IMG/VR virus record: IMGVR_UViG_3300025030_000106
Location: 1-62,897 of that record
Length of the DNA stretch: 62,897 bases
Origin: a virus
Taxonomy: Duplodnaviria > Caudoviricetes
Direction: 5' to 3' (one strand)
The notes under the pieces were generated by a model. That model was given only the letters and a program-made list of their open reading frames with translations, was not told where the DNA came from and searched no databases. How positions within the stretch are numbered: the stretch's first letter is position 1; each line of letters starts with the position of its first letter. Made by a program: the position numbers and the translations under genes. Shown here in pieces: positions 18,341 through 48,368 of this stretch.

Positions 18341-18378
18341 TAAAATTGGGCGGGCAGGATTCAGATCTGCCCGCCCAA
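18341..18378 (-). terminator. Intrinsic terminator-like hairpin
   Basis: TTGGGCGGGCAG-N9-CTGCCCGCCCAA followed by TTTT on the minus strand, just after the 279-aa gene. Confidence 0.7.
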
Positions 18379-18395
18379 CGGTTAAAGGTTAAAGT

Positions 18396-19327: not shown

Positions 19328-19931
19328 TCAATCACCTCCTTCTTTTATTGTTTCACTGGTAACCTTAACGCCACAGCCCAAGATCCAGCCAGCCAATTTG
19401 AACAGGGCTGTGGCAATGATCAGCCGAAGCCTGAACATCTCGGAGATCGTGATCTTGACCTCAAGCTGGTGCTTTGGGGTCAGCTTGCCAATTGTTATTC
19501 CATCGACTTTCATCCTTGTCCTCTCAAAGCGCCCTCGGATAAACGACCCGAAGGCCCTCGAATGTTTTTGGATAGGCAGCAATCACTGGCTTACCTGTGA
19601 GAAAGTCAGAAAACTGATAGCACTGCCCTTTATCAACGGAGACATCAATGGCTGAGCCGTACCGTTTCGCCCACTTTTTATTGACCCGTTTCTTATGGTG
19701 ACCCCGAGCTTGTTTTGTTGGCCAAGACATCCGGATCAGTTTTGGGGATACTGGTACTGCAGGCATCGAATACAGCTTCTGCCTCATCTCCAGTATCTTG
19801 GCAAGAGTAAGCGCTTGGGTAGTTGAGGCTGCTTCAGTCGTTGTACAGGCTTCAGGCAGGCTGCCACTCATCAGCTTAATAAACTCCATCTCTATTTCAT
19901 CTTTCCACATTTTAACCGTTGCGCCTCTCAA
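19328..19931 (-). other. Two small hypothetical CDS (19328-19513, 19524-19931)
   Basis: ORF track; start codons uncertain. Confidence 0.45.
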
Positions 19932-24845: not shown

Positions 24846-27452
24846 GCCTGAACCTCCGAATTCGGAACACTGTTGTTTGTCAACTGCCGCGCATCACCAC
24901 CCCCGGGCCCCGCCATAAGAGCATCGAGTTTAGCCCTGACGGCGTCGTGCCCGACGTCATCACCGAACTTCTGCCCTTGCAGGTAGGTCTCGTTCATAAA
25001 CTGCCCATTCCCATTCAACAGCCAACGTAGACGTCTGGCGTCTGCTGCATCACTTCGATCAATACTCATTGTTTCTCTCCTTGAGTTCGTCAAAACTTTG
25101 AGGTTGTTCTGACAGTTGTTTAAAACACTCGCCACACAGCGTGTCAACACCCTCTTCAATCACCAAGACCCACTTTCCGCAACCGGCACAGCGGATCTTG
25201 TATGTCTCCAACCCAGGTTCAGTCATTTTGAGTCCTCCTCATCAACTGAAGGGACTCTGTGAAAAACACCCTCCTCATCAGCATAAACGATACTCCCGTT
25301 CAAAAAATCTGGGATGAACCGGTACTCCACGTTCAGGTCATTCAAGTCAACCGGGGCTGGCACCTTCATGTAAAACCCTAACGGCATACGTCGATAAACT
25401 CCTGGTCCGGTAGGATCCCCTGCTTCCGACCAAGATGTTCCTGAGATATACCCTCCGATGACAGAGAGCAAAAAGCCCATTACCGCGATGGCTACACCAA
25501 GGAATACAAGAATAGCTGGATCAATGTGTTTCATTTTGCCTCCGGGGGTTCAGGTAGCGGTTGCCAGTGGATTATACAGGTATATCCAGCCACTCGGTCG
25601 GGTTTTGGATGTGTGTTCTTGGGCCACCCAGTCGAAACCAACCTGCCGGCACAGCAAGAAACGTTGTCCCGTCAATGACGCGCTCGGGTCGCCTGTATCT
25701 CCACTGCACCAAATCAGGTAGCCCCTTTCCCTCGCGGATCAAAATTGGCCTGTCCATTGGTGATGTCCCTATCGGTTGCCACTGAGAGGCGCGGGTGTTC
25801 CGCGCAAGCTCGGCTTCGAGATGCTGGGCTTTCCTAATAAATCTATCCATAGTCCACTCGTCTGGACGATCTGCTCGCCATGCGGATAAGTCATTTGTCA
25901 GTGTTTTTCCTTTATGATCTTCGGCACAATGTTTGCACATATCTCTCCTTAAAGTGTACGGCGGGCAGAGAATCGAACTCTGCACTGTGCGGAAATACGC
26001 AATACCCTTTCTTGCGCCACCGCCGTACTATTTTATTTCAGCCTTTCCGTTACTGCATCAAGCCGGTTTTGGCATAATAAAAATCAACCAGAGCATTGAA
26101 CATTTTCCAACCTCGTACAATATCTTCTTTCACTTGCTCCGTGCCTCCATGGCCCTGTCGGCTATCGTTACAAAAATACGATACGCACTACTCAGCTCAT
26201 CTTTCCCGTGGGTCAGCTCATCTTCCACACAAGTTTCAGCGATTGTTTCTATCTCCATCAGCGCCTCATCCTTCCGCGCAAGCTCGGCTTCTAGATGCTG
26301 GATGCGGCCGTATGCCTCGCCGCCATAACAGGCGCAATCATGATCCTGACACATAGCCCCTCCTCAGCAATCCCTCGAATCTATGATAGCAACGATTATC
26401 CAAAACGCTGAGTATAAAACTCCTATATCGTCACCATCCCCGAGAAAGGTGTTCAAACCAAGGGCAATCAATATCATTACCAATGAGAAGAATTTCATCC
26501 CAACTCCTCCTCAACCACCACCACCTCCAAAACCATCCTGGGCCCGGGCAGGCACTTCTGCTCCCATTGGAAGTCCGGCGCAACGTTAACGTCGACGTTA
26601 TGGTCCCGGAGGAATCCCATAATCTCATCATAGGGTATTCGGGAAGCCCTGCCAAACTCCATCAGGGCGCCCATCAACATCTGGGTATTCTGCCGCTCCT
26701 CGGCAACTTTATCAGACAGATACTCTGAGCCTTTGTTCCGACGGAGCAGCCGGGCGGTCAGCAACCACTTGCCAAACCCCAAGGCAGTCTTTTTGAACTG
26801 TTCAGATTTCAACACACTCATTTCTGATCCTCCTCGTTGATAAATTCAGCAACACTCTTGTCATACGGCGGCACTGAGACGTTCCAAGCCGCACAAAATT
26901 TCAGGCTGATCTGCTGCAGGACCTCCTCCACCCGCACTTGGCAGACTTGAGCATGCAAGGTGCTCTCCTCTGCCAAGACCCTCTCGTAGTGGTTGGTCGT
27001 CAGGATATTCCCAAACCAGGCCCCGACGCCAAACACACTGCAGATGAACAGAAATTTTAGCCACCACTTCATCAGGGCTCCTGATACCGCTGTAAGAAAT
27101 CACAAACCCGGGCCCGGGCAGCCGGAGACAACTTGCTGATGCAATCACTGGGCAGATCTCCGTGCCAAGCATTATCAAGATAGGACTCCAGATCATCCCA
27201 GATCTGCCCGAACCACCAACCGTTGGAGAAAAAGTGCTCAATGATACCTTGGCAGTCGACACAGACCTTGTAATTCCTGGCGGTCCCTTCACCAAAGCAG
27301 GTGTGATAGTAATACTCCTGTCCCTTCTTAATCTGGACTGAGCACTCACCACAAATATGGTCCTTGCCGGCATGCTTGATGTGTCTCACGCCCCAGTGCC
27401 AGTCCTCAGACTCTTCCATATAGCCAATAGCATTGCAGGAGCAATTCATCAT
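24842..27452 (-). other. Cluster of small hypothetical CDS (24842-25069, 25223-25534, 25572-25940, 26130-26354, 26495-26821, 26818-27072, 27072-27452)
   Basis: RBS-preceded, often overlapping ORFs; several TM or Cys-rich; WQPIGTSP motif in 25572-25940. Confidence 0.55.
25956..26028 (-). ncRNA. tRNA-like element 1 (acceptor stem and T arm, no canonical anticodon arm, no encoded CCA)
   Basis: GTACGGCGG/CCGCCGTAC stem, TGGCG after the 5' strand, GCAGAG-TTCGATT-CTCTGC T arm. Confidence 0.6.
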
Positions 27453-32314: not shown

Positions 32315-32659
32315 TTACTGTACAGAAAAATTAAAATTCTGGTACACCTCCTTACATTGTGTGGCGCCAAAGAGTTTGGTGTCAAAAAAACCTGTGGGGC
32401 ATTGCAGGAATATCTTTTCTCCCTCCGAGGTAAGGACACTGCAGGTGCCATACCCATCCCCACCTGAATCTCCTGCACATGTAATCCTCTTCACTTTCAT
32501 GCCATTTTGAGAAATAAACATCTTGGCTGCCACCATCGCCCGCCGCTCGGTTGCCCCACGATTATTCAGCCCAACACCCCCGATAAGGCTGGCAAAGATG
32601 CCGACAACCGCAGCCACTAGCAGTACCTCAACTATTGTAAACCCTTTCTCATTCATCAC
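32315..32659 (-). CDS. Type IV pilin/pseudopilin-like protein
   Basis: NEKG-FTIVEVLLVAAVVGIFASL class III signal (G-1, F+1, E+5); four Cys in the globular part. Confidence 0.8.
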   Translation of the reverse strand: MMNEKGFTIVEVLLVAAVVGIFASLIGGVGLNNRGATERRAMVAAKMFISQNGMKVKRITCAGDSGGDGYGTCSVLTSEGEKIFLQCPTGFFDTKLFGATQCKEVYQNFNFSVQ

Positions 32660-32681
32660 ATCTTAACCTCTGTTTGACTGT

Positions 32682-32787
32682 TGGTGGGGCGGGCAGGATT
32701 CGGACCTGCATGAGAGCCTCTTTGTGGATTTTGGGTCTGCAGACCCCTTCTCTCGCCACGTCGCGGGTGCCATTACGCCACCGCCCC
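32682..32787 (-). ncRNA. tRNA-like element 2 (106 nt, encoded ACCA, aberrant central region)
   Basis: GGGGCGG/CCGCCCC acceptor stem plus ACCA; D arm TGGCGTAATGGCACCCGC; T arm GCAGG-TCCGAAT-CCTGC. Confidence 0.7.
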
Positions 32788-32798
32788 ACATTCCTGAC

Positions 32799-33149
32799 CT
32801 ATTTCTTCGGTTCCCTCAAGCTGTAATACTGAGACACACTGGACAGCTCCACGGCACCTTTCGACTCCAACGTCGTGACCAACGCCGCGCCGCCGAACTC
32901 TTTGATCTTGCCAAACGCGATCGTGGCCCGAGCAATGAACTCATCTTTGCCCATCTCCTTGACCACGACGTCTTTGTCGGTGACTTTCCAGTTCTCGCGA
33001 GTGTTGAAGATCAGGGTGCCATACTTGGTCTCGACCTTGCCTGGGGTCCCGTGCTCCTTGATGCACTTGGCCTGGGCCGTGTCTGCCTGTTCTTCCAGCT
33101 TTTTGATTTCGGATTTGATTCTTGCCAAATCAGTGAAGCAGCGGTTCAT
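32799..33149 (-). CDS. Hypothetical protein with coiled-coil N-terminus
   Basis: AGGAG RBS; 116 aa. Confidence 0.6.
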   Translation of the reverse strand: MNRCFTDLARIKSEIKKLEEQADTAQAKCIKEHGTPGKVETKYGTLIFNTRENWKVTDKDVVVKEMGKDEFIARATIAFGKIKEFGGAALVTTLESKGAVELSSVSQYYSLREPKK

Positions 33150-33184: not shown

Positions 33185-33330
33185 GCTGATGTTACTGTGG
33201 TTTATCAAACTCATGAAGCTAATAACCCCTTCTGTTGATTTCCTGCTTCCTTGAAAGTAGTTTCGTTCCCAGGCAATTGCCCAAGAACCAGAGCTTCTCT
33301 CTCCACAGGCTTAACGTCCGGCAAACCCTG
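33185..33330 (-). ncRNA. Putative omegaRNA of tnpB copy B
   Basis: Same scaffold as copy A, ending near ATGAGTTTGA and followed by TAAACCACAGTAACATCAGCG; boundaries approximate. Confidence 0.55.
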
Positions 33331-34380
33331 CCATAGTATATTTTGAGCTGCGTGAAGGTCTCTATCAATAGAGACGCCATTACAAGAGCACTGGAAAGTT
33401 CTCTTGTTTAAAGGCATGTCATGCAGCTGACCACAACTTATACAGAGCCTTGTGCTTGGGAAGAACCTCCCCACGACGTGAACTCTAATAGATTTATAAA
33501 CGAGTTGCCTTCTAATCTCAGAAAAAGAGGCGTCTTGGATACTCTTTGCAAGACGTCGATTCTTTGCCATTCCTGATGTATTCAGATCCTCTATACAAAT
33601 GTCTGAATAGTTATCAGCAAGGTATGACGTCAACTTATGCAAAACGTCTTTCCTGACGTTACTGATTCTAGCGTGCAGAAGGCCCAGTTTCTTTTTTGCT
33701 TTTTCTCGGTTACTGCTACCTTTCTTTTTCCTGGCCAGGGATTTATTGAGCCGTCGAAGTCTCTTTTGATATTTCTTTGTCGTCTTGGGATTCTCAAAAG
33801 TTATCCCGTTAGAGAGCGCTGCCAATTTATCTATCCCAAGGTCAACGCCAACGGCTGAATACACTTGGCTATCGCTACATTCAGAGCCGTCTGGAATCTC
33901 TACCGTGATAGACACAAACCAACCTGCTGCTTCCTTACTCACCGTTGCTGACAAGAGCCGGCCCGGGAGCCTCAGAGACTCCTGCATTCTTACCCAGCCC
34001 AGCTTCGGTATCTTGATGCTCTTGCCATTGAGCTTGAAGTTTCCGTTGTCAAGATAAAAAGAGTCTTGTTGACCTTTCTTTTTAAATTTTGGGTACCTTG
34101 ACGCCTTTTTGAAGAAGTTCTTGAAAGCTTTTTCCAGGTCAGAAAATGCCCTTTGTGTAGCACACTTTGTAACTTCATAAACAAAAGGAAACTCTGACTT
34201 CTTCACAACGTTGAATTGCTTATCAAGCCCAAAAGCAGAGGGCTTCTCGCCGGCTTCATATTGCCTTTGCCACTCCACCAGACCCCAATTAAAGGCCAGA
34301 CGTCGAACGCCACAAGCTTTCTTGAAGTAGGTAGCTTGCTTATTGTTTGGCTTTAATTTTATCTTGTGGGCTCTTTGCAC
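33211..34380 (-). CDS. tnpB: TnpB RNA-guided nuclease (copy B, complete)
   Basis: GTG start MQRAHKIKLKPN; RuvC GVDLG, IEDL and DRD all intact; zinc finger. Confidence 0.95.
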   Translation of the reverse strand: MQRAHKIKLKPNNKQATYFKKACGVRRLAFNWGLVEWQRQYEAGEKPSAFGLDKQFNVVKKSEFPFVYEVTKCATQRAFSDLEKAFKNFFKKASRYPKFKKKGQQDSFYLDNGNFKLNGKSIKIPKLGWVRMQESLRLPGRLLSATVSKEAAGWFVSITVEIPDGSECSDSQVYSAVGVDLGIDKLAALSNGITFENPKTTKKYQKRLRRLNKSLARKKKGSSNREKAKKKLGLLHARISNVRKDVLHKLTSYLADNYSDICIEDLNTSGMAKNRRLAKSIQDASFSEIRRQLVYKSIRVHVVGRFFPSTRLCISCGQLHDMPLNKRTFQCSCNGVSIDRDLHAAQNILWQGLPDVKPVEREALVLGQLPGNETTFKEAGNQQKGLLAS

Positions 34381-34486
34381 GTTTCTGATTCCAGTATTTG
34401 CTTTTGCAGCTTGGGCATTTAGCCGGGCTTTTTGGCAACCTCGGGTACCACTGGTGACCACACCTGAGACACTTTAAAGTTTGCAT
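34340..34486 (-). CDS. Small zinc-ribbon protein overlapping the tnpB start
   Basis: AGGAGGTG RBS; MQTLKCLRCGHQWYPRLPKSPAKCPSCKSKYW. Confidence 0.7.
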   Translation of the reverse strand: MQTLKCLRCGHQWYPRLPKSPAKCPSCKSKYWNQKRAKSPQDKIKAKQ

Positions 34487-48197: not shown

Positions 48198-48368
48198 TTT
48201 TGTTCCTCCTAGGTAGTTTAAAACTACCGTCTTGCACACTTTGTGCTATTTGTTACTTCCCGCCTTGCGTTTGTGTTATCGGCATTTCCGATACTCCAAA
48301 CGCAAGGCGGGCAGGGTGAACAATCACCCTGCCCGCTCCCTCCTCTGAGGTAGTTTTAAACTACCCTG

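Follow-up and report, generated by a model that had tools for sequence, protein, structure and literature searches.

A tRNA-Leu-derived phage RNA with a putative interlocked centre, predicted not to decode, belongs to a recurrent and unannotated class

The present analysis concerns a 106-nucleotide (nt) sequence shaped like a transfer RNA (tRNA), located at 32787..32682 on the minus strand of the IMG/VR virus record IMGVR_UViG_3300025030_000106. The whole linear record, 62.9 kb with an estimated completeness of 78%, is referred to here as the window, and it carries the tailed-phage genes for a terminase, a family-A DNA polymerase, a primase and a helicase. The sequence appears to be the gene of a real RNA descended from a bacterial tRNA-Leu, with conserved acceptor, D and T arms, with a centre predicted to fold as a pseudoknot in place of the anticodon and variable arms, and with many counterparts of the same build in other phages. 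This part of the picture, i.e., anatomy, descent, conservation and class membership, we regard as quite likely. The fuller statement, that we are dealing with the gene of a real, non-decoding mimic of tRNA-Leu which acts in trans, is put forward tentatively, as a reading that falls just short of probable.

All parts of the RNA are encoded on the minus strand, from G1 at 32787 to the A of CCA at 32682 (32682..32787; 127.5 bits with R1, a covariance model built from both variants, i.e., that of the window and that of a homolog, L003). The acceptor stem, GGGGCGG (32781..32787) with CCGCCCC (32686..32692), comprises 7 base pairs (bp), all Watson-Crick, followed by U8 and G9; 7 of 7 pairs are kept in both variants, with G7-U66 replacing a G-C pair in the homolog. 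The D arm (32763..32778) is of the tRNA-Leu type, GCG and CGC enclosing a 10-nt loop with A14, A15, G18, G19 and A20a, and 24 of the 26 nt in this region are identical between the window and L003. The T arm (32693..32709) reads GCAGG UCCGAAU CCUGC, with C instead of U at position 55 of the window, the homolog having the loop UUCGAAU and hence U55; the discriminator A73 and an encoded CCA (32682..32685) are read directly from the sequence. An earlier note on this DNA had described the same 7-bp acceptor, A73, CCA, D arm and T arm, and each is present as claimed, exactly at 32682-32787 on the minus strand.

When 501 nt were scanned sensitively, the Rfam tRNA family RF00005 recovered the window RNA with a score of 30.7 bits (cut-off 29; E 1.6e-4, and E 4.9e-6 in a second search), through a local alignment only, which skips 44 nt at the place of the anticodon arm; the L003 RNA is likewise matched by local alignment (36.8 bits). 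With default filters the same family misses the window RNA, ARAGORN called neither a tRNA nor a transfer-messenger RNA (tmRNA) in the window, and the L003 RNA is also uncalled by ARAGORN at default settings. By its folding energy the window RNA does not stand out significantly (z -1.32; 19 of 200 shuffles fold as well), and the reality of the RNA rests on comparative evidence.

This evidence starts from a co-directional gene of 116 amino acids (aa) just upstream (32799..33149, minus strand), whose stop codon lies 11 nt before the RNA and which gave no Pfam or PHROG family. Relatives of the gene were found on two IMG/VR contigs (91% identity) and in a further 11 database proteins (62-90%); in both contigs the gene is followed by a 104-nt homolog of the RNA, identical in the two (the L003 variant), and three other matches are truncated at contig borders. 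Over the acceptor, D and T arms plus ACCA, 50 of 54 nt are identical between the window and L003 (92.6%), which can be set beside 219/234 first and second codon positions of the 116-aa gene (93.6%), 78/117 of its third codon positions (66.7%), and 20/45 nt of the flanking intergenic spacers (about 45%). The binomial probability of four or fewer arm differences is 7e-6 at the third-position rate and 8e-14 at the spacer rate, and by this measure the arms are evidently under purifying selection. Both RNA variants are present in one groundwater sequencing run. Beyond these relatives, the window region found no match among GenBank phages, where L003 gave T-arm-sized matches only and L218 none; E. 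coli genomes gave no match, and window-specific motif scans of viral contigs returned only the window's relatives or chance matches.

A centre of 53 nt takes the place of the anticodon and variable arms. Helix a, the equivalent of the anticodon stem, joins CGUGG (32756..32760) to CCACA (32723..32727) and aligns with the anticodon stem of tRNA-Leu; helix b joins GAGAG (32750..32754), which lies within an insertion, to CUCUC (32712..32716), which occupies the place of the variable-arm 3' strand, 2 nt 5' of the T stem. The inner hairpin GGGUC-UGCA-GACCC (32733..32746) forms the perfect DNA palindrome GGGTCTGCAGACCC; a relic of the anticodon loop, C34 A35 A36 A37 A38 and then U39 (32728..32733), gives the anticodon CAA by alignment with tRNA-Leu(CAA/UAA); and the linker between a' and b' is A-rich. 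Hairpin and helices had all been named in the earlier note (the latter as GUGG/CCAC and GAGAG/CUCUC), and all are present. Its proposal of two alternative helices with the hairpin nested inside one or the other did not hold, since the helices interleave in the order a-b-a'-b', from which we infer an H-type pseudoknot. Nested minimum-energy folds each contain helix b or a slipped form of it.

Comparison of the two variants points clearly to central pairings kept by compensatory change. Helix a, CGUGG/CCAC(A or G), is invariant save for a C.A mismatch in the window that is C-G in the homolog, giving 4 bp plus C.A in the one and 5 bp in the other. For helix b, GAGAG/CUCUC of the window corresponds to AGGGGG/CCCUCU of the homolog, without any shift of register against the fixed flanks; among 6 aligned pairs, 3 differ on both sides and one has gone from G-C to G-U. 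The inner hairpin, shorter in the homolog, has one compensatory change from G-C to A-U. Pairing over the whole structure reaches 96.7% of cells and falls to 37-55% once the 3' partner is displaced by 1-3 columns; a shuffle control for covariation, which is weak with two sequences, attained the observed value in 34 of 500 shuffles. Identical columns number 30 of the 53 in the centre and, by manual count, fall mostly into three blocks, CGUGGC, CUGCAGA and CAAAAUCCAC, the last of which is a block of 10 nt invariant between both variants. Position 33 is C in the window and U in L003.

With respect to origin, the alignments identify the RNA as an apparent descendant of a bacterial-type class II tRNA-Leu with the relic anticodon CAA. 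In one Dehalococcoidia metagenome-assembled genome, which carries a fragment of the phage's 116-aa gene, the best match of R1 is a tRNA-Leu(CAA) at 42.7 bits, and 17 of 20 nt in the D-arm region are identical to this tRNA (manual count). In 151 further Chloroflexota genomes R1 matched at E<=1e-7 in 5, always over 86-88 nt, and the 3 of these that were typed are all tRNA-Leu(UAA); a full-length homolog of the RNA was found in none of the 152 Chloroflexota genomes, which gave ordinary tRNA-Leu only. The acceptor 5' strand is identical to that of one Chloroflexota tRNA-Leu(UAA). The sampling for origin covered Chloroflexota only, and the host is not identified by these matches. Within the centre, YCAAAAUCCAC aligns with positions 33-43 of tRNA-Leu(CAA/UAA), which span the anticodon loop from position 33 onwards and the stem strand that follows it; the 3' strand of helix b and the 2 nt before the T stem align at the 3' strand of the long variable arm; and an insertion of 18-21 nt sits 5' of position 33 and pairs with that former variable-arm strand. 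Shared with bacterial class II tRNA-Leu are the acceptor 5' strand, A73-CCA, the 3-bp D stem with A14, A15, G18, G19 and A20a, the T arm, and a variable-arm 3' strand ending 2 nt before the T stem. Unlike it, the window RNA has no 7-nt anticodon loop, carries an insert 5' of position 33, receives no ARAGORN call, and draws the 5' strand of its variable arm from inside the loop, which results in the predicted pseudoknot.

An anticodon stem of 5 bp, with a 7-nt loop that offers U33 and a free anticodon, could not be recognised (RF00005 skips 44 or 30 nt). With 44 nt skipped at this place in the window RNA and 0 calls by ARAGORN, the view taken earlier that there is no decodable anticodon loop is borne out, and that the RNA is not a tmRNA agrees with a G-C pair at 3-70 and an empty ARAGORN tmRNA search. 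The body of the molecule keeps most of the marks for leucyl-tRNA synthetase (LeuRS). According to PMC9976931, E. coli LeuRS needs A73, A15-U48, G18G19 and A20a, and needs neither the anticodon nor the variable arm. A73 is present in both variants, and sequence reading finds U8:A14, G18G19, A20a, A15:U48, G18:U55, G19:C56 and U54:A58 all present except U55 in the window and U48 in L003. The original description of a tRNA-Leu-like RNA unable to decode stands; the RNA is moreover conserved and, in the window, retains the E. coli LeuRS marks A73, U8:A14, G18G19, A20a and A15:U48. Most likely, the RNA would be excised like a tRNA, chargeable, and unable to decode.

In the mechanism we propose, the insertion would pair with the variable-arm 3' strand and helix b would interlock with helix a, leaving a compact pseudoknot and a small hairpin in place of the codon-reading end. 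Probably transcribed within the early operon, the RNA would be excised by host tRNA-processing enzymes, with RNase P cutting at G1 and 3' trimming to CCA, and the excision would also detach the message for the 116-aa protein from that of the cassette downstream. Once released and ending in CCA, the RNA may then display the LeuRS identity marks, be charged, and be unable to enter decoding; in trans, such a chargeable non-decoding mimic of tRNA-Leu could serve as a sponge, a decoy or a leucine carrier. We favour a trans-acting mimic because a mere cleavage signal would not need so elaborate a centre. A decoy for anticodon nucleases in particular, as had been suggested, is unlikely in that form, since no anticodon loop is displayed.

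The same build was encountered far beyond the window. A scan for the common T arm and acceptor 3' half returned 19 stretches, with an ARAGORN tRNA in 5 of the 17 examined, and one of them, L189, combines the build of the window RNA with entirely different helix sequences. A class pattern consisting of a Leu-type D arm, a centre of 44-74 nt and the same T arm, GCAGGUNCGAAUCCUGC, occurs in at least 113 stretches among 2.9 million viral contigs; the window and L003 fit it, and L018 and L033, of the L003 type, are among its matches. From the matches listed, 110 sequences were extracted, of which 69 are distinct, and 59 non-redundant centres were obtained, including those of the window and L003. 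We asked for helices a and b to be interleaved, with a gap of 0-3 nt between the 3' strand of b and the T stem, as is the case in the window RNA: interlocked helices totalling at least 11 bp are found in 36/59 of these listed centres vs. 175/1180 shuffled ones (about four-fold enrichment), and at least 12 bp in 21/59 vs. 90/1180. Features lying outside the pattern were counted on 71 sequences among the matches listed, again including the window and L003. The acceptor is 7/7 paired in 67, A73 is present in 59, U48 (the nucleotide before the T stem) in 69, and U at -1 in 44, both window-type variants among them; the discriminator is followed by CAA in 33 and by CCA in 7.

ARAGORN at default called a tRNA in 0 of the 69 distinct class sequences from the matches listed, and at 16 loci the class RNAs themselves are matched in Rfam by the tRNA family only (33-44 bits; lengths 95-125 nt). 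Canonical tRNA genes lie near many class members, and one locus has a tmRNA gene, which was observed at L243:485-847 (+) with 97.7 bits, 77 nt downstream of the class member. One member is 100% identical to positions 19550-19660 of Bacteroides phage BS-TP2, in an unannotated gap between two same-strand genes of the early operon; it matches 2 of 50,697 GenBank phage records, and the window's own type matches none. By these counts the class recurs but is rare. Altogether, pattern and pairing place the window RNA, by all appearances firmly, in a recurrent and unannotated class of phage RNAs. No description of this class was found in the literature or in Rfam 15, supplementary files being outside the search.

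In the window, the RNA is intercistronic and co-directional with its neighbours, 11 nt separating it from the preceding stop codon and about 22 nt from the start that follows. A promoter-like site was not predicted immediately before it, nor does a T-run follow; probably it is co-transcribed with these neighbours inside the early operon. Homology between the window and L003 spans the 116-aa gene and the RNA and ends 1 nt after the CCA. Beyond this point, about 690 nt in the window, containing a pilin-like gene with an N_methyl motif (32315..32659, minus strand; a swappable cassette outside the conserved module), are unrelated to about 860 nt in L003, containing a 178-aa open reading frame (ORF), after which synteny resumes. 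Because homology stops 1 nt after the CCA, the RNA appears to sit at a cassette boundary and the pilin-like neighbour to be incidental; the significance once attached to the placement right before the pilin-like gene is lost, the downstream cassette of L003 being a different one. Another option of the earlier note, a processing element, fits the operon context: the RNA is tRNA-derived, apparently non-decoding, and located at cistron borders of a polycistronic transcript, as a processing signal would be, with the cleavage itself predicted. Neighbouring ORFs gave only unknown or irrelevant Pfam matches and no partner enzyme, and RtcB, RNA-ligase and CCA-adding families were all missing from the window, a record 78% complete. 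In the gap from the RNA to the pilin-like gene, at 32656-32672 (-), a GAGG ribosome-binding motif is followed, after 5 nt, by the start-stop pair ATG-TGA, which overlaps the region where the pilin-like ORF begins (GTG/ATG). An IS605-type tnpB (33211-34461, minus strand; OrfB_IS605, HTH_OrfB_IS605 and Cas12f1-like TNB domains) lies upstream of the 116-aa gene; a link of the RNA to a TnpB guide RNA was considered and dropped, the tnpB being an insertion absent from L003 at this place.

The operon setting raises the question of whether the RNA acts in cis instead. As tRNA-shaped punctuation similar to t-elements, it would be cut by RNase P and 3' nucleases, splitting the operon transcript and giving the downstream cistron a short leader, with the RNA itself a by-product; we consider this a strong rival, though on balance unlikely. 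The intercistronic, co-directional site with no predicted upstream promoter is in its favour, as are the same kind of context around the BS-TP2 member and the U at -1 in both variants and 44/71 listed class members, a base that suits bacterial RNase P. The window holds further same-strand, tRNA-derived intergenic modules (25956-26028 and 18345-18379); a 64-nt anticodon-less tRNA of a related phage is reduced in the window to an acceptor/T minihelix and a T-run, and a distant relative has a plain hairpin and T-run at the RNA site. Plant mitochondrial t-elements offer a known parallel, discussed below. However, cleavage would need only an acceptor/T minihelix and elbow, not a compensated, interlocked centre that recurs in about 59 diverse centres; retention of A73 and U48 is left unexplained, and many class members adjoin canonical tRNA genes, as ordinary tRNA genes do. 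A mimic in trans and punctuation in cis are, moreover, not exclusive. The RNA might also be a decaying tRNA-Leu pseudogene, functionless and carried along with the neighbouring gene, which we hold to be very unlikely. It is true that it does not decode, that the window has C55 and a C.A mismatch in helix a, that the RNA is absent where the 116-aa protein is 62-67% identical, that sister elements are visibly decaying, and that three phage records contain no canonical tRNA. Decay is nevertheless hard to reconcile with arms at 92.6% next to first and second codon positions at 93.6% and flanks at about 45% (P <= 7e-6), with the compensatory changes in helix b, or with an architecture that recurs in many unrelated phage contigs, the acceptor being intact in 67/71 listed.

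Ranked just below the pseudogene, and equally far from likely, is a cis-acting 3' structure that would stabilise or terminate the upstream mRNA without being excised, the tRNA shape being an accident of origin. Plain GC hairpins with CGGGCAG/CUGCCCG at comparable sites (18.3 kb, 48.3 kb and L170; z -5.6 to -6.2) lend it some appeal, but no T-run follows the 106-nt RNA, and the D arm, A73 and CCA are conserved though hairpin function needs none of them. Least probable of the explanations weighed is an intron-bearing tRNA-Leu(CAA), in which removal of the 18-21-nt insert from the RNA would yield a decoding tRNA. Such an origin would account for U33-C34-A35-A36-A37-A38 beside the anticodon-stem 3' strand in the homolog, and ARAGORN with introns allowed gives some call for 65/69 listed class members. 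Yet with introns at default it finds nothing in the window or L003, and at 80% thresholds its answers are discordant, the window being read as Ser(AGA), interrupted at 39/40 by an intron of 21 nt, and the homolog as Phe(AAA), interrupted at 34/35 by one of 18 nt. Removal of the insert would leave an 8-nt loop or no U33, the window having C33; and the insert is far too short for a group I or II intron. A script search found no bulge-helix-bulge motif, Rfam no intron family, and neither RtcB nor an RNA-ligase family turned up in the window (78% complete). For the class as a whole, the 'anticodons' so obtained stand for almost every amino acid and the intron sites range from 32 to 42, despite the Leu-type body, a pattern expected by chance from a permissive search. 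Splicing into an ordinary tRNA, the outcome that the earlier note had considered fatal to its own view, finds no support in the discordant intron calls, the missing bulge-helix-bulge motif or the missing ligase family.

Several observations weigh against the trans-acting mimic that we prefer. One LeuRS-relevant contact is broken in each variant (C55 in the window, C48 in L003), the window's own type is represented by two variants, which makes its covariation a single comparison, and the sequencing runs holding the DNA are four, all of them DNA contigs of one groundwater study that may itself be where this DNA came from, with no RNA run. Relatives whose 116-aa protein is 62-67% identical are without the RNA: in L169 (67%) the next gene overlaps and the RNA is absent, and L170 (62%) has a GC-rich hairpin and T-run at the RNA site, from which it follows that a simple hairpin can occupy this slot. 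Simpler tRNA-derived elements decaying to hairpins are also present in this phage group, which would favour a role in cis or drift. In the wider class the D and T arms are fixed by the pattern, and sameness of these arms is no evidence; with a lax criterion (a >= 4, b >= 5) 53/71 real sequences qualify vs. 175/355 shuffled ones, 18/71 being without an a/b pair. Nor was a recurrent partner protein gene found around 111 class loci, the best neighbour cluster accounting for 5 of 58 RNA groups.

Among known systems, tmRNA has G3.U70, a tag reading frame, several pseudoknots and a length of more than 230 nt. Its tRNA-like domain is alike in joining an acceptor and T arm with CCA to a pseudoknotted RNA without an anticodon; the window RNA differs by G3-C70 rather than G3.U70, a full D stem, no tag reading frame and 106 nt. 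As an identity tmRNA was rejected, ARAGORN -m being empty and the permuted tmRNA model reaching only 10.1 bits, a chance level, and so was tRNA-Sec (12.7 bits on the wrong strand). The tRNA-like structures (TLS) of plant RNA viruses, in which a pseudoknot builds the acceptor arm at the 3' end of the RNA genome, also combine viral tRNA mimicry with a pseudoknot and can be charged by a host synthetase without decoding, whereas the window RNA has a canonical acceptor, a putative pseudoknot replacing the anticodon and variable arms, and its gene in a DNA phage. Further tRNA-like elbow modules that do not decode are known from YrlA and other bacterial and phage Y RNAs and from mascRNA. The latter is excised by RNase P, and its model gave sub-threshold matches only, to sister elements (17.5-20.1 bits vs. 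a cut-off of 42.5); YrlA has the opposite topology, its 5' and 3' ends forming the Ro-binding stem, and a YrlA/Y RNA identity was discarded as RF02553 had no match at E <= 10. A likeness of CGUGG..CCACG-UUAAA to the pistol ribozyme was also discarded, with no Rfam match at E <= 10 and no class-wide sequence conservation.

Closer in setting are the t-elements of plant mitochondria, reportedly the subject of Forner et al. 2007, which are likewise tRNA-derived, non-decoding and found at cistron ends. In PMC11658184 they are described as lying at the ends of coding regions in polycistronic transcripts, as being cut by RNase P/Z and CCA-tailed, and as reported not to be aminoacylated. Unlike the window RNA, t-elements are organellar and have no interlocked centre, and the processing of the phage RNA is predicted. 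Irregular allo-tRNA-like sequences (Mukai et al. 2017, via PMC7609411) are odd, class II-like and environmental, some of them having extra stems and being unusable in translation; they show an 8/4 or 9/3 acceptor/T geometry and are Ser-type, whereas the window RNA is 7/5 and Leu-type.

A still broader generalisation, which we find distinctly doubtful, would be that many phage lineages encode a dedicated class of leucine-accepting, non-decoding tRNAs, processed, CCA-ended and charged in the manner of tRNA-Leu, in which a fast-evolving pseudoknot plug bars the ribosome, and that these play a trans role in the conflict between phage and host over tRNA. Much of the contest of phages with bacterial defences is fought over tRNA, and the usual interpretation of phage tRNA genes is that they help with codon usage or substitute for cleaved host tRNAs. 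The RNA described here keeps features seen by the synthetase, RNase P, the CCA enzyme or EF-Tu, with its decoding end apparently sealed. If the generalisation were true, such an RNA could soak up host enzymes or defence toxins whose target is the tRNA body or the CCA end, or else supply leucine privately to the phage, and an arms race would have left its mark in the hypervariable centre. A charged RNA would parallel, in a virus of cells, the tRNA-like structures of plant viruses; one that is only cut would parallel, in a phage, the tRNA punctuation of organelles. In both cases, annotation pipelines appear to miss a real class of phage RNA genes, on which Rfam, GenBank and ARAGORN at default are all silent, and the member in the cultured phage BS-TP2 makes the question testable at the bench.

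Across three phage records the Rfam tRNA model gave 5 matches, all of them odd, non-decoding elements, and no canonical tRNA. At L176:1501-1567 (-), equal to G001:C1:6917-6983, the related phage has a tRNA scaffold of 64 nt (55.4 bits with the Rfam tRNA model) in which the anticodon loop has shrunk to 2 nt, giving a perfect 12-nt palindrome; it has no CCA, and a T-run comes after it. At the orthologous site of the window, 18345-18379 (-), a clean 32-nt deletion fuses the acceptor 5' strand to the T arm; the resulting minihelix or terminator hairpin has 3 changes in T stem and loop, and its flanks are nearly identical to those of the related phage. A further element, at 25956-26028 (-), consists of a 9-bp acceptor-like stem, a 6-bp D-like arm and a 6-bp T arm with the loop UUCGAUU, has neither anticodon arm nor CCA, and is followed 5 nt downstream by AAGGAG; it gave no Rfam tRNA match and no DNA counterpart in G001 or G002. 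Intergenic hairpins at 48307-48336 (-) of the window, at L170:3358-3392 and at the 18.3-kb site share the stem motif CGGGCAG/CUGCCCG (z -5.6 to -6.2), which is common to the hairpins and to the acceptor and T stems of the tRNA-like elements and suggests a continuum from tRNA-like element to plain hairpin. The hairpin of L170 sits exactly at the site of the 106-nt RNA, with a T-run after it; for the 48.3-kb hairpin the search for an ortholog gave only a 19-nt match.

Two other viral contigs deserve mention for their altered anticodon regions. At L179:526-947 (-), in an unrelated viral contig, three tandem matches to the tRNA model, 117-119 nt long, are called by ARAGORN at default as tRNAs with insertions of 42-46 nt in the anticodon loop, and two of these inserts share an AAUCC..GGAUU hairpin followed by GACAGCAA. 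The element at L183:3367-3463 (-) has the same acceptor and T arm, together with an anticodon stem of about 16 bp and the 7-nt loop UUACGAC.

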